NCBI GenBank assembly: GCA_958421945.1
Contig: CATZMZ010000008.1
Location: 10,278 to 74,277 of the forward strand
From: an uncultured Eubacteriales bacterium
GTDB lineage: Bacteria; Bacillota; Clostridia; Christensenellales; Borkfalkiaceae
DNA: 64,000 nucleotides
Reading direction: 5' to 3'
In this document: piece after piece, positions 5,224 to 34,320 of the stretch
How positions within the stretch are numbered: position 1 is the stretch's first letter
Layout of the letters: the number at the start of each line of letters is the position of its first letter
Position numbers and translations under genes: made by a program
The notes under the pieces: generated by a model
The model's database searches: none
What the model was told of the DNA's origin: nothing
Seen by the model: only the letters and a program-made list of their open reading frames with translations

Positions 5224-5910
5224 ATGATAGAATGCGTCGAAGAAAAAATATATTACGGCAAAAAGGGCGGTAAAAAGTTAAGCAAGAGAAAAAGGGGTCG
5301 GTTTTTAAAGACGGTTGTTTTGCTGCTCGTTATTTTCGGCGCGTTTTATTATTATCGCGAAGTGATAGCTAAAAACGTAATCGAGCTTTGCGCCGACAAA
5401 TGCGCCGCCATAAACGCAAAATGCGTAAACAACGCGATTGTAGTTTCGTTAAACGATAGAATCAGATACGAAGAACTTGTTACCGTCGATAAAAACGGCG
5501 AGGGAAAGATAAATATGCTTTCCGCAAATGCCTTTAAAATGAACGCTGTTTCGAGAGAAATCGTAGACTCTTCGCGTATTATTTTAGAGGAAAACCTTAA
5601 AAACGGCATAGAAGTGCCTTTGTTTGCTTTTTCGGGATTAACGCTGCTTTCGGGTTTCGGTCCTGATACGAGATTTTCGGCGTTATCGGTAAGCGCGGTA
5701 AACTGTGATTTTAAGAGTAGTTTTTCCTCGGTCGGAATCAATCAGACGCTGCATTCCGTTTACGCAGAAATTACGAGCGAAATCAGGATTGATTTCCCGC
5801 TTAACGCCAAATACGAAATTTTTTCTACGAAAATACTGTTATGCGAAGCGGTTCTGGTCGGCGAAGTGCCGGAAATTTACTTAAACGGCGGACTTTTTAA
5901 TAAAAGTTAA
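5224..5910 (+). CDS. yunB: Sporulation protein YunB
   Basis: 228 aa with a basic N-terminus plus one TM helix. The C-terminal ...AVLVGEVPEIYLNGG... resembles the end of Bacillus YunB. No clear SD, so the start is uncertain. Confidence 0.7.
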   Translation: MIECVEEKIYYGKKGGKKLSKRKRGRFLKTVVLLLVIFGAFYYYREVIAKNVIELCADKCAAINAKCVNNAIVVSLNDRIRYEELVTVDKNGEGKINMLSANAFKMNAVSREIVDSSRIILEENLKNGIEVPLFAFSGLTLLSGFGPDTRFSALSVSAVNCDFKSSFSSVGINQTLHSVYAEITSEIRIDFPLNAKYEIFSTKILLCEAVLVGEVPEIYLNGGLFNKS

Positions 5911-6254: not shown

Positions 6255-7277
6255 ATGGACAAGTTTGAAGAACTGAAACGAAAGGTTAAAGAGGAGCTGG
6301 ATAAAATCAAATCAATCAGATTTCTCGGTGACCTGAAAGCAAAATTTATAGGTAAAAACGGCGAAATTACCGCGCTTCTCCGCGGTATGAAAGACGTTCC
6401 CAACGATAAGAAAGCCGAATTCGGAAAAAAAATAAACGACTTAAAAACCGAAGTCGAGTTTTCTATTAACCAAAAAGAGGACGAGTTGAAAGAGGAAGAG
6501 CTTAACGCCCGTTACGCAAAAGAAGCCATCGACGTTACTTTACCCGGCAAAAAGCCGCTCGTCGGAAGTCTGCATCCGTTAAATATCGTTAGAAATCAGG
6601 TTATCGACGCGTTCACGGGGCTTGGGTTCGAAGTTTTCGAAGGACCTGAAATTGACAGCGATTATTATTGTTTCCAGGCGCTTAACATCCCCAAAGACCA
6701 TCCCGCACGCGATATGCAGGACACTTTCTATTTTAACGACGGTATTTTGTTAAGACCGCATACCTCTCCGGGACAGGTCAGAACGATGGAAAATAAAAAG
6801 CCGCCGATAAAGATTTTAAGTCCGGGCAGGGTATACCGTGCTGACGACGACGCGTCGCACTCGCCGATGTTCCACCAGATAGAGGGGCTTGTCGTAGATA
6901 AGGGCGTTACGCTTTGCGATCTTAAAGGTCTTTTGGACGATTTCGTTAAAACGGTTTTTGACAGCGATACTAAAACGAGATTCCGCCCGTCTTATTTCCC
7001 GTTTACAGAACCGAGCGTCGAGGTGGACGTTACCTGCTGTAAATGCCATGGCAAAGGTTGCAGTCTTTGCAAGGGGACGGGGTGGATAGAAATTCTCGGT
7101 GCGGGAATAGTCAATAAAAACGTTCTCGAAATGAGCGGCATAGATTCCGAAATTTATTCGGGACTAGCGTTCGGTTGCGGTATAGAACGCATTACTATGA
7201 TTAAATACGGCATTTCGGATATAAGAACGCTGTTTGAAAACAACGTTAAATTCTTAAAACAGTTTGACAGGAGATAA
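6255..7277 (+). CDS. pheS: Phenylalanine--tRNA ligase alpha subunit
   Basis: Strong PheS sequence (HPARDMQDTFY, FRPSYFPFTEPS, EILGAGIV). The start is placed at ATG 6255, 6 nt after GGAGG. The track start at 6243 is a TTG inside the terminator tail. Confidence 0.95.
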   Translation: MDKFEELKRKVKEELDKIKSIRFLGDLKAKFIGKNGEITALLRGMKDVPNDKKAEFGKKINDLKTEVEFSINQKEDELKEEELNARYAKEAIDVTLPGKKPLVGSLHPLNIVRNQVIDAFTGLGFEVFEGPEIDSDYYCFQALNIPKDHPARDMQDTFYFNDGILLRPHTSPGQVRTMENKKPPIKILSPGRVYRADDDASHSPMFHQIEGLVVDKGVTLCDLKGLLDDFVKTVFDSDTKTRFRPSYFPFTEPSVEVDVTCCKCHGKGCSLCKGTGWIEILGAGIVNKNVLEMSGIDSEIYSGLAFGCGIERITMIKYGISDIRTLFENNVKFLKQFDRR

Positions 7278-23442: not shown

Positions 23443-24374
23443 AAAACGATGTTCCGTTATTGATAATCTGCGGTCCTACCGCAAGCGGAAAAACCGAGCT
23501 TGCGGTCGAATGTGCCAAGCTTTTACATTCCGAAGTGATTTCCGCCGATTCAATGAACGTTTATAAAGAATTGAATATAGGGACAGCAAAGCCGTCTTTG
23601 GAAGAAAGAATGGGTGTCCGACATCATCTGATAGACGTCGTTTCGCCTTTCGATTCTTTTTCCGTTGGCGATTATAAGGAGCTTGCCGAACCGATTGCAG
23701 AAAAATTAACGTCTTTGGGCAAAACACCCGTGATTTGCGGCGGGACGGGTTTTTATATCAATTCATTACTTTATGACTTTTCTTACGGTAACGTTGCGGA
23801 AAATACCGTTGCCAGAGAAAAATATAAAGCGTTAGCACTTAAAGAAGGAAATGAATACGTATATAACGTTTTAAGAAAAGTTGACGAAAAATCAGCGGAC
23901 AGAATCCACCCGAACGATATTAAAAGAGTAATCCGTGCTTTGGAAATTTATGAAAACGGGACTAAAAAATCCGATATTATCGACAGCCAAGTTCCAAAAA
24001 GAAAGTTCCTTGCTTTTTCATACGACATTCCACGTGACGAACTGTATGAAAAAATGAATAACCGTGTAGATTTAATGATTAAAAACGGACTTATCGATGA
24101 GGTGAAAGGTCTTATTCTGAAAGGCTTAAACGAAACGCATCAAAGTCTGCAGGGTATAGGTTATAAAGAAATTTTCGAATATTTGTCGGGCAGGCTGCCT
24201 TTGGACGAGGCAGTTGAAAAAATAAAGCTTAACACAAGACATTATGCAAAAAGGCAAATCACTTTTTTCAAAAAAATTCCCGATTTGATTTATTTAAAAA
24301 AAGAAAAAACAAAACAGACAGCGGAGAGAATCGTTACCGAATATGATAAATACAGACTTAATCAAAAAATGTGA
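23421..24374 (+). CDS. miaA: tRNA dimethylallyltransferase MiaA
   Basis: 317 aa with the P-loop GPTASGKT and SADSMNVYKELNIGTAKP. It overlaps the mutL end by 22 nt. Confidence 0.93.
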   Translation: MVQENFVKNDVPLLIICGPTASGKTELAVECAKLLHSEVISADSMNVYKELNIGTAKPSLEERMGVRHHLIDVVSPFDSFSVGDYKELAEPIAEKLTSLGKTPVICGGTGFYINSLLYDFSYGNVAENTVAREKYKALALKEGNEYVYNVLRKVDEKSADRIHPNDIKRVIRALEIYENGTKKSDIIDSQVPKRKFLAFSYDIPRDELYEKMNNRVDLMIKNGLIDEVKGLILKGLNETHQSLQGIGYKEIFEYLSGRLPLDEAVEKIKLNTRHYAKRQITFFKKIPDLIYLKKEKTKQTAERIVTEYDKYRLNQKM

Positions 24375-28881: not shown

Positions 28882-30249
28882 ATGTCTGACATAAACAACT
28901 TAAAAGTGGGTTTTGCAAGGGTAAATATAACGCCTATGATGGGCATAAATATATCGGGTTATTTTCAAGTTCGTTTGGCTGATGGAGTTTTGGACGATAC
29001 CGAAATCAACGCGATTGCAGTAAACTCTTTAAATGATACTGTTTTAATGTTAAGCATAGATATATGCGGAATCACGGCGAACGTATTAAAAGAATTCAGA
29101 GAAAGAATTTCGGCAAAAACAGGTATTCCCGAGGATGCGATATATATCTCGAGCACACATACTCACACCGGTCCTATGATGTGGCCGATAAAAAATAAAA
29201 TTTACGGCGACGGAAAACTCGAAAAAGAATACAGAGAATTTTTAACAAAAAAGGCGATTGACGTTTCTTGTTTTGCTTTGGACGATTTAAAACCTGCCCA
29301 AATGGGTATAGGCGTCGGTATTGCGCCGAATATCAGCTTTTTAAGAAGATTCAGGATGAAAGACGGTTCTGTGGCAACAAACCCCGGACCTAATAACCCC
29401 GATATCGTTGCGCCGATAGGTGAGGTTGACGAGCGCGTAAACGTCGTTCGTTTTGACCGAGAAAATGCGGAAACCATTATTCTTGCAAACTTCGGTGACC
29501 ACCCCGATACAGTCGGAGGAAATAAAATTTCAGCCGACTGGCCCGGTTTTTTCAGAAGAGAAACGGAAAAGGCCCTCGACAACGTAAAGTGTATTTTCTT
29601 TAACGGCGCGCAAGGAGACGTCAACCATGTGAACGTTCATCCTAAGGGCGGAGATTTAAACGATATGTTTTTGGATTTCGATGACGTTGAAAGGGGATAT
29701 GGACACGCAAGATATATGGGCAGAGTCGTTGCGGGTGCTGTTTTACAGGTTTACGATAAAGTTGAATACTTAAACGTTTCCCAAATCAGATATATTCAAA
29801 AAACGATTAAAGTTCCGTCAAATAAGCCTACACCCGAAGAAATGCCTTTGGCAAGAAAGTATACCGAGCTTCATTTAGCGGGTAAGGATTCTGAAATTCC
29901 TTATAAGGGAATGATGTTGACGACTGTTATTGCGGCAGCAGAAAGAAAAGTGCTTCTGGAAAACGGACCGGATTATTTTGAAATGCCACTTTCTTGCATT
30001 TCAATAGGCGATATTGCGTTCGTAGGAATCCCCGGCGAACCTTTCTCCGGGATAGGTATTGAAATCAAAAAGACGGCAGGATGGAAAATGATTCTTCCAT
30101 GTTGCGCAACCAACGGTTGTGAAGGGTATTTCCCGATGAAAGAGGCTTATGACGAAGGCGGTTACGAGGCAGGCTCGTCGGAATTTAAGTCAGGTGTTGC
30201 CGAAATCATTATCGACGAAAGCAAAAAAGCTCTTGCGGAATTAAAGTAA
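28882..30249 (+). CDS. Neutral/alkaline ceramidase-like (non-lysosomal ceramidase N-terminal domain) family protein
   Basis: 455 aa with ...GFARVNITPMMGINISGYF...RLADGVLDD...YISSTHTHTGP..., resembling the ceramidase N-terminal domain. The substrate is unknown. Confidence 0.5.
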   Translation: MSDINNLKVGFARVNITPMMGINISGYFQVRLADGVLDDTEINAIAVNSLNDTVLMLSIDICGITANVLKEFRERISAKTGIPEDAIYISSTHTHTGPMMWPIKNKIYGDGKLEKEYREFLTKKAIDVSCFALDDLKPAQMGIGVGIAPNISFLRRFRMKDGSVATNPGPNNPDIVAPIGEVDERVNVVRFDRENAETIILANFGDHPDTVGGNKISADWPGFFRRETEKALDNVKCIFFNGAQGDVNHVNVHPKGGDLNDMFLDFDDVERGYGHARYMGRVVAGAVLQVYDKVEYLNVSQIRYIQKTIKVPSNKPTPEEMPLARKYTELHLAGKDSEIPYKGMMLTTVIAAAERKVLLENGPDYFEMPLSCISIGDIAFVGIPGEPFSGIGIEIKKTAGWKMILPCCATNGCEGYFPMKEAYDEGGYEAGSSEFKSGVAEIIIDESKKALAELK

Positions 30250-30299
30250 TTTCTATTTATTAAAATCATTTGTTTAATAATATTTTTAATAGCAAAAGG

Positions 30300-30333
30300 G
30301 GACTAACGCTTTATATTGTTAGTCCTTTTTTTT
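30300..30333 (+). terminator. Intrinsic terminator of the nagA-like cluster
   Basis: GGACTAAC-gctttatatt-GTTAGTCC followed by T8. Confidence 0.7.
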
Positions 30334-30428
30334 GTGTTTTAAGCAAAAATAAGTATTTATTAAACTACAACTTTATATACTTAATAAAACAAAAGGGTGA
30401 TATGCGGAGGAAATATGAAATAACGACT

Positions 30429-31496
30429 CTAAATCAAGGGGTTATTTTTATTCGAAATGGATAAGTTTTTGATTGCATTCTTTTTGGTATCCTCGGAAAT
30501 CGCTGCATAATGTTTTTTCGTCGTGTTTACATCCTTATGACCCAAACAATCGGCAACTACGTAAATATCGCCTGTTTGTCTGTATAAATTCGTGCCGAAC
30601 GTACTTCTTAATTTGTGGGGGGTAATTTTTTTTAACGGTGAAACGATTTGCGCATATTTTTTAACCAACTCTTGCACCTGTCGCGCAGAAATTCTTTTAT
30701 TTTGAAGGGATAAAAACAAGGCAGGGGATTCGATTTCTTCAATTTTGTTTTGTCTTAAAAGCATATAGTCTTTTAGGGCGTTTGCCACGTCGTTATTAAA
30801 ATACAAAATCGTGCGATTGCCGCCTTTTCGCGTCACAATAAAGCTGTTCGTATTAAAATCCAAGTCGGTAACGTTTAAGCCGACAAGCTCGCTGATACGT
30901 ATTCCTGTACCCAAAAAAAGCGTAATAATCGCTGTGTCCCTGACGCCTGTAATTTTATGGAACGCCGCTTGTTTTTTAGTTAAACCGTTTCCGCTTTCAA
31001 CGGTATACAACATATCACCGATTTCGTCCTTTTTATCGTTAGATTCCAAACGAATAATCTCTTTTTCGTGTATTTTGGGCATCGAAACTTTCGTCGGCGT
31101 GTTGGCAGACAACAAATTTCTATTAAAAAAATATTTAAAAAAAGCACGCAGGGTAGAGAGCTTTCTTGCTTTTCCGGTTTCGGTACACCGTTCTGGTTTT
31201 CCGTTAATTTCGTAATGATTGAGATGACTCAAATAATATTCAAAATCGGAAGGCTGCAACTTATCCAAATCGGATAAAGTAACGTCAATAACCGCTTTAT
31301 CGGTAAATACTTTTTTAGCTAAAAAATCATAGAATATCCGTAAATCGTAGGCATAGTTTAATCTTGTCAGTGCAGAGGTTCTCGGTTCAACGCCGATGAA
31401 AAAATCTTTAACATAATAGGGTAACTCGGAAATAATTTCCTTGCTTCTTATGGAGCAATTTATTTCTCTTTTTTCGTAATAGGATTTTTCTTTCAT
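30429..31496 (-). CDS. Tyrosine site-specific recombinase, Xer-like (single-recombinase XerS/XerH-like architecture)
   Basis: 355 aa from ATG 31496 (SD AGGGTG); the track start at 31505 is a GTG. It has an N-terminal SAM-like core-binding domain and catalytic-domain motifs: GTGIRISEL (Arg I), VTRKGGNRT, HKLRSTFGTNLY (H-x-x-R) and LGHKDVNTTKKHY (His plus Tyr nucleophile). There are no neighbouring phage or transposon genes. Confidence 0.85.
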   Translation of the reverse strand: MKEKSYYEKREINCSIRSKEIISELPYYVKDFFIGVEPRTSALTRLNYAYDLRIFYDFLAKKVFTDKAVIDVTLSDLDKLQPSDFEYYLSHLNHYEINGKPERCTETGKARKLSTLRAFFKYFFNRNLLSANTPTKVSMPKIHEKEIIRLESNDKKDEIGDMLYTVESGNGLTKKQAAFHKITGVRDTAIITLFLGTGIRISELVGLNVTDLDFNTNSFIVTRKGGNRTILYFNNDVANALKDYMLLRQNKIEEIESPALFLSLQNKRISARQVQELVKKYAQIVSPLKKITPHKLRSTFGTNLYRQTGDIYVVADCLGHKDVNTTKKHYAAISEDTKKNAIKNLSISNKNNPLI

Positions 31497-31605
31497 TTTT
31501 AACACCCTAATTCAATTTTATGTGAGTTTTAAAGGTAGGTTATTGTTCACTATTAATTGTAATTTTGATTTAAGCAAAAGAATAGGAGAACATAATCACA
31601 TATAT

Positions 31606-31643
31606 TTAACTATGCGCAAAACACAGCTTTTACGCATAGTTAA
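31606..31643. other. Candidate recombinase core site (dif-like): 16-bp inverted arms around a 6-bp spacer
   Basis: TTAACTATGCGCAAAA-CACAGC-TTTTACGCATAGTTAA. The arms are reverse complements with one mismatch. The site lies 110 bp upstream of the Xer-like gene, at the plus-to-minus gene-orientation switch. Confidence 0.4.
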
Positions 31644-31849
31644 GCTTATATATTTAAGATAACATATAAAAAAAGCATTGTCAAGTATAGTTAAGCAAAA
31701 ATCTTAAATATATTTTGTATAATAACTTTTTTAAGTGGTTTTTACGATTTTAGGATTCTTCGAATTTTAGCGTCGTATCGGATTGTTAAATATTTTTTAA
31801 TAATATTGTCTGACATAATGACTATTAAAAAGTATTGAATTTTATTTTC

Positions 31850-31878
31850 TTGACAATGTGTTATTATTATTGTATACT
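31850..31878 (+). promoter_or_regulatory. Sigma-A promoter of the PadR-like gene
   Basis: TTGACA (31850-31855), 17 nt, then TATACT (31873-31878). Confidence 0.6.
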
Positions 31879-31907
31879 TATTATAAGTTAATTACGGAGT
31901 ATTATTT

Positions 31908-33185
31908 ATGGAACAACCTGCAATTTCAAGCGATTTAATTCGCGGTCATATTGATACGATTATATTGCACACTTTACTTGACGGAGATAAATATGCCCAA
32001 CAAATCAGTTTATCCGTCGAAGAAAAAAGCGAAAAAAAATACACCATAAATCAAGCGACGCTGTACAGTTCGTTAAAAAGACTTGAAAGCTTAAATTTTG
32101 TTAGCTCTTACTGGTTTGACGCGTCCGACGGAAGAAGAAAATTTTTTAAGATTACAGAAAAAGGCAAACAAGAAGTTAATAATAATTTATCGTCTTGGGC
32201 TTTTTCGCGTCAAATTATTGATAAACTTATGGATTATAGCGAGCCTGAATCTAAAAAAAGTAATTTTAACGCTGTTCCGATAGTTCAAAAAGTCGTTTTT
32301 GAAGCAAAAAACACCGATAAACCTCAGGTTTTTTCACAAACGCAAGCCGAAAAGCCCGTTACAACGAATTATAGCGATATAAAAACGAATTCTATCCGTC
32401 CTATTGAAGAAAAAACCGAAAAAACGGTTGAAAACACGGTTAACGTCAGGACTGAAACGTTAAAAAATACCGAAAACGACGAAAGAGAGATAAATTTTAG
32501 GACGATTTTGAGCGGACTAATAAAAACTTCCGTAATAACTACTCCCGAAATTGAAGAAAATGACAAACAAACCATTGATAGAATCGATAACTCCGAAGCT
32601 GAAAAGCCTAAGTTCAACGAAACTATAAATTTAACCGATTACGGAGTGCGTTCCTTTAAAAATAGCGGAAACATAGATTACAGCGACTTGACGCAAAATG
32701 CAGCACAAGAAGGTTATAAGTTGAAAATTTCCGCTATGGATTCGGCAAAACCTGTCGGAAACGTATATTGCAACAAGGTTGATTTCTTTTCCGCTTTGAC
32801 GTTGTTCGTGCTTGTTTTTTTTGAGGTTTTATTTGCAGCCGTTGGCTTTTATAAGGAAAATTTTAAATTATTAAATGCCTCTGCACCTATTATTGTTGCG
32901 GCAATAATCGTTTTAGTATTTGCAATTAAACTTATAAATAACCCGTTGAAAACCGATTATAAATCATTGAACTCTAATAGAATCGTTACGTCTTGCATTT
33001 TATCATTTAACCTTTTATTATTGACGTTGGTAATAAACTTTTTGGCGGGAACGGATTTTAATAATCCATATAACGTTATGTCATACATAATCTCACCCAT
33101 TATCGCCTTTACCGATATAGTGATTTTCTTTATCGTTCAATATTGTTTTTCCAAATCGAAAGCATTTATCGTTAAAAGAAAATAG
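31908..33185 (+). CDS. PadR-family winged-helix regulator fused to a low-complexity linker and a 4-TM C-terminal domain
   Basis: The N-terminus (LIRGHIDTIILHTLLDGDKYAQQISLSVEEKS...INQATLYSSLKRLESLNFVSSYW...GRRKFFKITEKGK) is PadR-like. Residues about 290-420 form four hydrophobic helices. Confidence 0.75.
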   Translation: MEQPAISSDLIRGHIDTIILHTLLDGDKYAQQISLSVEEKSEKKYTINQATLYSSLKRLESLNFVSSYWFDASDGRRKFFKITEKGKQEVNNNLSSWAFSRQIIDKLMDYSEPESKKSNFNAVPIVQKVVFEAKNTDKPQVFSQTQAEKPVTTNYSDIKTNSIRPIEEKTEKTVENTVNVRTETLKNTENDEREINFRTILSGLIKTSVITTPEIEENDKQTIDRIDNSEAEKPKFNETINLTDYGVRSFKNSGNIDYSDLTQNAAQEGYKLKISAMDSAKPVGNVYCNKVDFFSALTLFVLVFFEVLFAAVGFYKENFKLLNASAPIIVAAIIVLVFAIKLINNPLKTDYKSLNSNRIVTSCILSFNLLLLTLVINFLAGTDFNNPYNVMSYIISPIIAFTDIVIFFIVQYCFSKSKAFIVKRK

Positions 33186-33208
33186 TCAACTATTTTGCTA
33201 AAACTTAT

Positions 33209-33242
33209 AAAAAATCCACCGTTAGCGGTGGATTTTTGTTTT
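33209..33242. terminator. Bidirectional intrinsic terminator (PadR-like gene and aldolase-like gene)
   Basis: A-run, ATCCACCG-ttag-CGGTGGAT, then TTTTGTTTT. Confidence 0.7.
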
Positions 33243-33291
33243 ATTATCAGGTTATGTGCTTTTAGTATAAATAATCTAAGTCTGTTTATAC

Positions 33292-34320
33292 TTATTTTAC
33301 CGAGCGACGATATTTTTCGGCTTCCCAGTTATTTATAAAGCTGACTTCTTTTTCGTTCATCGTGCTTACGGTAAGTCCGTTATTTTTAATAGTCGTTATA
33401 ACAAATAGGTATGCCGCAAGCGTTTCTTCAAGAGTGATTGCTTGTTTTAAGTCCGTCTTGTAAAAAACTTTCCCGTCTTTTACCGTCATAGTATCCGGAG
33501 AGTGTGCAAGAATATTATTTAAATATACAAGTTGGTCCGGATATAACGGATACTCGTCAAGATAATCTTTTTTAAGTCCGTTCCGGGAAACAAAATCTTT
33601 TACGCATTTTGTATCGGAAACGTATCCCCCGTTCATCTCCTTAAGAATTACCGCGTGGAAATCGTCCGCAAGTCCGAAATGCTTTCTAATCGTTTCGTTT
33701 ACGTCGGTATGCAGTGATTTAACCCTGTCGATATAATCGCTCGTAACGACCAACCCGTGATTTTTCATAAAAATAATTTCGGGATATTTCCCTTTTTCTT
33801 TTATAAAATCTTCAATTTTTTGCTTCATTGCGAGCGTAAGCTCGAATCCGGGGTTAATATACGGCAAGAAAATATAGCCGTAATCTTTATTTATAAATAA
33901 CTTTTCGGCTAAACTTTCCCCTTCTTTGCTACAAGTAAGAACGTTTGCATAAACGGAATGTGTGTGTATAACGTATTTTTTTAATATAGCATGGAATCCG
34001 ACCTCAACGCTGGGGCGAAGCGTAGGCATACCCGATATTGAAATAACCGAGTTTTTAGAGACCTCCGCGCTTTCCTTTTCGTAATCTTTCTTTATTGATA
34101 AATCAACCGATGCATAATAATCCGAAATCTTCTTTTTAGACACGGCAACGAAAGCGTTTTCGGGCGTAATATCCTTTAATCTATATCCGGACGCCTTAAT
34201 AAGCATAACCCCCTCTTTGTCATTTTTAACGGAAGTATTTCCACCTCCGCCTTGCGTGTAATCGGCACGGTTACCCGCATACGTTGAAATATCTACCAAA
34301 TCACGAATAGTTTGTTGCAT
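33292..34320 (-). CDS. Class II aldolase/adducin-domain protein resembling the aldolase half of bifunctional rhamnulose-1-phosphate aldolase/SDR
   Basis: 342 aa with ...ADYTQGGGGNTSVK...LIKASGYRLKDI...IHTHSVYANV.... It is adjacent to rhaA. No SDR domain is attached. Confidence 0.6.
   Translation of the reverse strand: MQQTIRDLVDISTYAGNRADYTQGGGGNTSVKNDKEGVMLIKASGYRLKDITPENAFVAVSKKKISDYYASVDLSIKKDYEKESAEVSKNSVISISGMPTLRPSVEVGFHAILKKYVIHTHSVYANVLTCSKEGESLAEKLFINKDYGYIFLPYINPGFELTLAMKQKIEDFIKEKGKYPEIIFMKNHGLVVTSDYIDRVKSLHTDVNETIRKHFGLADDFHAVILKEMNGGYVSDTKCVKDFVSRNGLKKDYLDEYPLYPDQLVYLNNILAHSPDTMTVKDGKVFYKTDLKQAITLEETLAAYLFVITTIKNNGLTVSTMNEKEVSFINNWEAEKYRRSVK

Follow-up and report, generated by a model that had tools for sequence, protein, structure and literature searches.

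A candidate single-recombinase Xer/dif module, related to but distinct from XerS/difSL, at the replication terminus of a Christensenellales bacterium

A stretch of 64,000 nucleotides (hereafter the window) was analysed from an uncultured Eubacteriales bacterium of the gut, belonging to the order Christensenellales (assembly GCA_958421945.1). It corresponds to C8:10278-74277 of a 1.67-Mb assembly in 20 contigs, which is 81% complete (G, C and L denote genomes, contigs and loci in our numbering). In the window, a gene for a tyrosine recombinase of 355 amino acids lies directly beside a palindromic, dif-like site, at the position of the replication terminus. The pair is interpreted as a single-recombinase Xer/dif module for the resolution of chromosome dimers, with a recombinase from a clade related to but distinct from XerS; based on sequence comparison, the probability of this reading is estimated at about 0.8. 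The resolution of chromosome dimers is found in nearly all bacteria with a circular chromosome, and to our knowledge few single-recombinase solutions have been described, namely XerS, XerH, XerA and XerL. The first-pass annotation of the window had already proposed a dimer-resolution recombinase with an adjacent dif site at the terminus. This proposal is supported on all four points at which it could have failed: the GC-skew switch is located at the site, the site is single-copy and conserved alongside the recombinase, no canonical XerC/XerD pair above cut-off was found in the assembly, and the recombinase does not cluster with the phage integrases.

The recombinase is encoded on the minus strand by an open reading frame (ORF) at positions 30429-31505. 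Translation from the ATG at 31496 (gene at 30429-31496) yields a XerS-like protein of 355 amino acids. A Pfam search returned the catalytic Phage_integrase domain and a SAM-like N-terminal domain and nothing further, and upon alignment R200, K224, H294, R297, H320 and Y330 occupied all six catalytic positions of XerD, XerC and XerS. The gene is flanked in the window by genes for a ceramidase-like hydrolase, a PadR-like regulator and a class II aldolase, with no mobile-element genes among these neighbours, in agreement with the earlier description of a lone recombinase with a full catalytic set. With its two domains, the R-K-H-R-H-Y set and Xer proteins as nearest relatives, the protein has the features of the Xer subgroup of simple tyrosine recombinases as defined in Smyshlyaev 2021 (PMC8138268).

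Among the NCBIfam families, the best match was XerS (NF003462) with 191.6 bits, covering model positions 9-357 of 360, followed by XerC (163.8 bits), XerA (159.1 bits) and XerD (138.9 bits). The recombinase stays under the curated cut-off of each of these four models. For NF003462, an equivalog model, this cut-off is 267 bits, and judged by NCBI's own cut-off the recombinase is not an XerS equivalog. The resemblance to XerS suspected in the first pass was thus confirmed for the best family and the full-length match, but not at the level of the score. Homologues from elsewhere in the order and from Lachnospiraceae reached 199-200 bits with the same model. The length of 355 amino acids compares with about 356 for a typical XerS, and the N-terminal extension and the insertions without counterpart in XerC and XerD are present; upon alignment, the XerS-type insertions were located in the N-terminal domain and between both domains. 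These shared insertions make XerS and the recombinase about 60 amino acids longer than XerC and XerD. The closest solved structures were those of XerA and XerD, for the catalytic domain only, with XerH farther away (PDB 5jjv, E = 6e-8, catalytic domain only). Close homologues have generic public names: "integrase", "tyrosine-type recombinase/integrase" and "XerD".

A maximum-likelihood tree was constructed in which XerS was represented by cut-off-passing sequences of Paenibacillus, and from which streptococcal XerS, XerH, XerA and XerL were absent. The homologues of Christensenellales, Lachnospiraceae and other Clostridia formed one clade with a support of 100/99, the sister of which was a Desulfitobacterium-type clade (98/94). 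Jointly, these two clades were sister to the cut-off-passing XerS sequences (93/92), on long branches, and the sister relation of the recombinase clade to XerS read from this tree is provisional. Bona fide XerD (414 bits) and XerC (368 bits) of the same phylum were placed elsewhere, and the integrases of the source genome formed a distant outgroup, split from the recombinase by a 100/99 branch. The recombinase accordingly belongs with the Xer proteins, with XerS as its nearest group and at a large distance from the integrases of the source genome, as had been anticipated. An identity as phage or mobile-element integrase was rejected on the grounds of the non-mobile neighbours, the single-copy core gene and this 100/99 separation. 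The Paenibacillus proteins (L111-L114, from G059, G213, G320 and G181) scored 382-385 bits, above the XerS cut-off, and have the RefSeq name XerS; in one closed Paenibacillus contig of 6.8 Mb, the XerS gene is found at 54.6% of the length. Since these proteins pass the cut-off, XerS in the annotation sense is not confined to the Streptococcaceae, of which it has been treated as a hallmark (PMC1914069, PMC8136486).

The dif-like site is located at 31606-31643 and reads TTAACTATGCGCAAAA-CACAGC-TTTTACGCATAGTTAA, with the left arm at 31606-31621, the spacer at 31622-31627 and the right arm at 31628-31643. The arms of 16 nt are reverse complementary with one mismatch and enclose an asymmetric spacer of 6 bp, exactly as first described. 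Their conserved core consists of the inner 12-14 bp of each arm, with the half-site (A/T)CTATGCGYAAAA. The site is intergenic, with the recombinase gene on one side (109 nt between the site and the ATG) and the PadR-like gene on the other, and its G+C content is 34% (13/38, counted by hand) versus about 38-48% for the contigs. Inverted repeats with 16-nt arms, at most one mismatch and a spacer of 4-8 were enumerated in the window, with 20 Markov-1 simulated sequences as a control. Two were found in the window, the other one being terminator-like, and none in the simulated sequences. The 38-mer has one copy in the assembly, and a search with the 28-nt core, allowing up to three mismatches, returned one further match, which is at the level of the reversed-pattern control. 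In a survey of the family, comprising 201 genomes, most genomes contained exactly one match to the core pattern.

Across the genus, the family and the order, 92 loci with 78 distinct sequences have the site upstream of the recombinase orthologue, at 14-650 nt from the start codon. Among the loci with enough upstream sequence, two exceptions to this linkage were observed, L055, which has a hybrid site instead, and L097. The uniqueness and conservation on which the first-pass annotation depended are thereby confirmed. Information content per position reached 1.75 bits in the inner 12 bp of the left arm and 1.52 and 1.56 bits in the whole arms, compared with 0.92 in the spacer and 0.35-0.40 in the flanks. 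Position 5 of the arms is C or T, independently in both arms (observed 42/21/8/6, expected about 41/22/9/5), in line with recognition of the half-site by a protein and not with a base-paired RNA stem. The spacer drifts among lineages (GCCGTG, GTCGTG, CAGTCA, CACAAG, GACAAG) and is inverted relative to the gene in one family (CTTGTC). The PadR-like gene is the divergent neighbour only within the family of the source organism (about 70 of 110 loci), and loci at the level of the order keep the site without it. The site travels with the recombinase and not with the neighbouring genes.

The signature of a replication terminus was observed at 30000-34000 of the window, where both GC skew and gene orientation switch from plus to minus. 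Nearly all ORFs of at least 150 amino acids between 2.3 and 30.2 kb are on the plus strand, and nearly all of those between 33.3 and 60.5 kb on the minus strand, in line with the convergent gene blocks reported earlier to meet at the recombinase. The cumulative GC skew has its maximum at about 30-34 kb of the window (C8:43154, window position 32877, about 1.2 kb from the site). On every large contig the cumulative skew is monotonic, except for C8, with this maximum, and C7, with a minimum near dnaA. Apart from small late maxima, seen on C2 in the vicinity of an integrase and on two short contigs (C16 and C17), no other interior switch of the terminus type was present, so C8 carries the sole terminus-type switch of the assembly. 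In two closed relatives, the orthologue is about half a chromosome away from dnaA: 50.8% of the circle in G032 (2,422,126 bp; dnaA at 1,254,057, orthologue at 24,228) and 53% in G028 (2,560,186 bp; dnaA at 910,801, orthologue at 2,269,476). The predicted coincidence of the skew switch with the recombinase and its site was thus found, with a matching position in the relatives. The orthologue is single-copy in 35 of 41 relatives (24 of the 26 high-quality genomes) and was found in 15 of the 17 sampled genera of the order.

An FtsK with a gamma domain is encoded in the source genome (C3:65977-66162, 80.9 bits). Leading-strand-biased, G-rich octamers were also observed, AGGGGATA (68:1) and AGGGCAGA (59:3). 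They are possible FtsK-orienting words, with a bias that is confounded by gene orientation; the k-mer skew returned G-rich words and words resembling ribosome-binding sites, and no claim on FtsK-orienting words is derived from it.

Further Xer genes, the presence of which would have spoken for a conventional system, were searched for with profiles. No canonical XerC or XerD above the cut-off was found in the source assembly or in 24 genomes of the same genus. In 20 of these 24, the best match of the XerD model was the recombinase orthologue itself, at about 127-148 bits, and the other four gave no match; several of the same-genus genomes, with the orthologue as sole XerD-model match, are 96% complete. 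The other tyrosine recombinases of the source genome are two integrase-like proteins (303 and 464 amino acids) and two fragments, all far under the XerC and XerD cut-offs.

In two relatives, elements were found inserted in the site. IMEX are mobile elements that integrate via the host Xer machinery, and the two insertions resemble these. In G497, a single contig of 419 kb contains an element of 4.3 kb that is flanked on either side by a copy of the site in direct orientation and lies immediately upstream of the xer orthologue (L187, G497:C9:125500-135500; sites at 2585-2612 and 6929-6956). The gene order is PadR-like gene, hydrolase gene, site A, 4.3-kb block, site B and xer orthologue, in which site A is AACTATGCGTAAAA-AGATAC-TTTTACGCAGTAGA and site B is TCTTTGCGTAAAA-GTTGAG-TTTTACGCATAGTT. 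The products of the element are a Rep protein containing a His-hydrophobic-His motif, a P-loop protein, a Gly/Tyr-rich protein anchored in the membrane, five small proteins, most of them membrane proteins, and one further membrane protein; no recombinase was found among them. G341 contains a homologue of this element, with an identity of 40% for the P-loop protein and 35% for Rep. Its boundary towards the PadR-like gene is a perfect site (C41:33802), and its boundary towards xer is a hybrid, AAAGGGTAAAA-GCCGTG-TTTTGCGCATA, which abuts xer (C45:27535). The G341 element measures about 6 kb or more and is split over L150 (G341:C45:26000-32361) and L151 (G341:C41:31500-35023) by a contig break within a single element gene. 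This element encodes a Rep with Rep_OBD (PF01719) and an XRE-type repressor, with no recombinase in the parts seen. By their gene sets, both Rep-encoding elements are filamentous-phage-like. In both genomes the host-facing arms are perfect and the element-facing arms degenerate, the pattern expected if an imperfect mimic recombined with the host site within the spacer. The obvious candidate for the catalyst is the host enzyme encoded next to the site, since the elements have no recombinase of their own.

Viral contigs were scanned for the spacer with the right arm, with four matches. Three of these (L152, L154 and L155) are coincidental, since they are inside one large conserved coding frame (621-aa ORF), and were rejected as phage sites. 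The fourth, L153 (IMGVR_UViG_3300028797_000396), has a near-complete intergenic site at 5843-5863, AACTGTTCGCAAAA-GCCGTG-TTTTGCGCATAGAT, about 450 bp from the contig end, with terminase and portal genes nearby. It was dropped as evidence of Xer hijacking because it is a tailed-phage contig with its own tyrosine recombinase.

By consensus scan, a promoter-like site reading towards the recombinase gene was located at 31656-31684 on the minus strand (TTGACA, 17 nt, TG-TATCTT). This match (31684-31656) is the sole one on the recombinase strand, none being present between the site and the ATG. If the promoter is real, the dif-like site would cover about +6 to +43 of the transcript, a position comparable to that of an operator. 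A partial third half-site, GTATAGTTAAGC, which repeats the outer right arm, abuts the -35 hexamer at 31686-31697 and may have a regulatory role. In many relatives the full site is located at a greater distance from the gene; there, xer has a clear TTTACA-17-TATAAT promoter, the -35 of which is abutted by a lone half-site, CTTTGCG(C/T)AAAA. This suggests that the recombinase controls its own expression. Such lone half-sites were seen in L033 (2951), L041 (696), L051 (2952), L053 (199), L070 (2646), L086/L087 (2950), L102 (390) and L083 (2970), the last as the variant CTATGCGTAAAA. With either the site or a lone half-site at the xer promoter, the recombinase probably limits its own synthesis. 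A similar speculation was made for difSL by Le Bourgeois et al., based on a binding element at the xer promoter (PMC1914069).

A site immediately beside the recombinase gene is known from XerS/difSL and XerH/difH (PMC1914069, PMC2731167, PMC5357621). XerS/difSL of streptococci and lactococci (Le Bourgeois 2007, PMC1914069; Nolivos 2010, PMC2965235) shares with the module a single recombinase of about 355 amino acids, with XerS as best family and common insertions compared to XerC/XerD. Likewise, the gene is directly downstream of its own site in one terminus module, in a genus without XerCD and with FtsK present, and inner AAAA/TTTT runs surround a short variable centre. The two differ in that the recombinase described here belongs to a separate clade and has 191.6 bits versus the cut-off of 267, and in their hosts, Streptococcaceae for XerS/difSL and Clostridia for the module. 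The sites differ as well: the arms of 12-14 bp (CTATGCGYAAAA) are almost perfectly symmetric here, with a spacer of 6 bp, whereas difSL, with its 31-bp consensus, has unequal arms, TTTCCGAAAA and TTTTCTTGAAA, and 11 bp between the cleavage points (PMC5357621). The site does not match the difSL consensus and only the AAAA/TTTT inner runs are common, while the AAAA-N6-TTTT core geometry is found in the site, difSL and difH (PMC5357621, PMC2731167). The earlier caveat that the site corresponds to neither difSL nor the dif of Bacillus therefore stands, the overlap with difSL being limited to the core geometry.

XerH/difH of Helicobacter and Campylobacter (Carnoy and Roten 2009, PMC2731167; Debowski 2012, PMC3325230) also has a single recombinase of about 355-360 amino acids, usually linked to its site, at the terminus, and a ...GAAAA-N6-TTTTC... 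core with conserved inverted arms and a variable hexanucleotide. XerH is, however, distant in sequence, the arm sequences are others and the hosts belong to another phylum. XerL/dif of Legionellales (bioRxiv 10.1101/2021.09.12.459815) is alike in its description: a single recombinase missed by homology surveys, long uninterrupted inverted repeats, and a site exposed by an integrated element mimicking it. In Legionella, xerL is more than 400 kb from dif, whereas gene and site are adjacent here. With IMEX (CTXphi, VGJphi and TLCphi of Vibrio and the gonococcal genetic island; PMC5357621), the insertions share the absence of an integrase, the location within the host dif, and flanking by one good and one degenerate copy of the site. 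They differ from IMEX in that those use XerCD of proteobacteria, compared with a single XerS-like enzyme in Clostridia, and the elements are found in the relatives G341 and G497 and not in the window. Regarding the properties by which chromosomal dif sites have been recognized (Carnoy and Roten 2009, Le Bourgeois 2007), the site has one copy per chromosome, a terminus position at the skew shift, an intergenic location, inverted arms, a centre of 6-8 bp and a low G+C content. A literature search returned XerS in Streptococcaceae, XerH in epsilon-proteobacteria, XerA in archaea and XerL in Legionellales, and no such module in Clostridia.

Based on these comparisons, the following mechanism is proposed. 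Two XerS-like monomers would bind the near-identical half-sites, (A/T)CTATGCGYAAAA, of the unique terminus site. Once sister chromosomes have been joined into a dimer by homologous recombination, both copies of the site would be brought together at the septum, probably by FtsK. Strand exchange by four subunits would then take place at the borders of the spacer of 6 bp by means of Tyr330 and yield two monomers. By binding the site or half-site at its promoter, the recombinase would probably limit its own synthesis. Filamentous-phage-like elements, replicating by rolling circle and without an integrase, would carry a mimic of the site and integrate by means of the host enzyme, as IMEX do. With less assurance than for the module itself, it is considered fairly probable that Christensenellales, with homologues in Lachnospiraceae and other Clostridia, use an undescribed single-recombinase Xer family forming a sister clade to XerS. 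Its dif would be a near-perfect palindrome in the promoter region of its own recombinase gene and a recurrent entry point for integrase-less phages of the filamentous type, which would be the first IMEX outside the proteobacterial XerCD hosts.

Several points weigh against this interpretation as a dimer-resolution module. Dimer resolution, the dependence on FtsK and the cleavage positions are proposed by analogy with the known systems. The recombinase scores 191.6 bits, under the XerS cut-off of 267, and the XerS side of the sister relation (93/92) consists of Paenibacillus sequences alone. In the window, the dif-like site may be transcribed as a leader hairpin. The spacers in G497 differ (AGATAC versus GTTGAG). 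Such a difference does not follow from a simple exchange in two steps between identical spacers, and either the exchange of one strand, as in CTXphi, or subsequent drift would have to be assumed. A canonical XerD is present besides the XerS-like gene in three other families of the order (G025:C2:478935, G029:C1:970080 and G040:C27:7419; 280-360 bits, next to a phosphopentomutase-like gene), so the module is not the sole Xer system everywhere and can coexist with XerD outside the genus. In G029, the XerD and XerS-like genes are 24 kb apart. Finally, the 81% completeness of the assembly leaves room for a second Xer gene in the source genome, although the 24 congeners argue otherwise. This incompleteness would also accommodate a XerCD-like pair, in which a second partner recombinase is encoded in the unassembled 19% or is too divergent to be recognized, and a few congeners have an extra XerC/D-like gene of about 140 bits (G021:C11, G008:C55). 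These extra genes are sporadic and not conserved, however, the recombinase gene is the sole XerD-model match in several 96%-complete genomes of the genus, and two nearly identical arms are expected for a single binding specificity. Such a pair is regarded as highly unlikely.

The element insertions are the sole direct in-vivo footprints of recombination at the site, and this, together with the XerD kept in some families of the order, would also fit an attachment or integration hotspot or a domesticated integration module for small phages, with dimers handled otherwise or being rare. A hotspot serving parasites only is not expected to stay fixed at the terminus, whereas the recombinase gene is a vertically inherited single-copy core gene across the order, is positioned opposite dnaA and at the skew switch without mobile-element neighbours in the window, and is found in a genus without other Xer; this explanation is considered unlikely. 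The insertions themselves, made precisely in the site and leaving hybrid arms, oppose a purely regulatory palindrome that takes no part in recombination and acts as operator for the PadR-like regulator or the recombinase, or as a leader RNA hairpin. The PadR-like divergent neighbour in about 70 of 110 loci, the location of the sole promoter-like match upstream of the palindrome, which could thus be transcribed, and the symmetric changes in the arms (for instance A:T to T:A at position 13 and G:C to T:A at position 8) are in favour of such a role. On the other hand, many relatives have a clear promoter between the site and the gene, which leaves the site outside the mRNA, and the arms are conserved in sequence beyond pairing, with position 5 independent between them. 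Loci at the level of the order retain the site without a PadR-like gene, by which the PadR operator was ruled out, and a purely regulatory role is judged extremely improbable.

As a dimer-resolution module, the pair would fill a gap in chromosome segregation, being a distinct and unannotated system in abundant gut and rumen Clostridia. The site could serve as a sequence marker of the replication terminus in fragmented metagenome-assembled genomes, and the module would explain where small integrase-less phages integrate in Christensenellales hosts. A compact pair of recombinase and site is also a potential genetic tool for anaerobes that are hard to engineer, and the near-perfect symmetry of the site raises the question of how the order of strand exchange and the control by FtsK are imposed.

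Beside the Lachnospiraceae homologues, no match to the Christensenellales site consensus was found. In Eubacterium sp. AF36-5BH (L105), the homologue of which is 47-51% identical and has the RefSeq name 'tyrosine-type recombinase/integrase', a different palindrome is present about 106 nt upstream, CTGTAAAA-ACAGTAT-TTTTACAG, and this may be the Lachnospiraceae version of the site. In the sister clade, a Desulfitobacterium sp. (G169, L117) has a homologue of 327 amino acids with an asymmetric dif-like sequence upstream, AACTATGCGCTAAAT-ATCAAT-TTAATACAGAGTT, one arm of which is similar to the Christensenellales half-site. Two adjoining dif-like sites were observed upstream of xer in G002 (L084 / L019, at about 2870-2946 of L084). 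The first is diverged with a spacer of 6 bp, CTTGCGGAAAA-TGACCT-TTTTGCGCAATG, and the second has good arms and a spacer of 9 bp, CACTGCGCAAAA-GTTGTTTCA-TTTTACGCATAG. The PadR-type regulator of the window (31908-33185, plus strand), a conserved divergent neighbour in the family of the source organism, has a long linker and predicted membrane helices.

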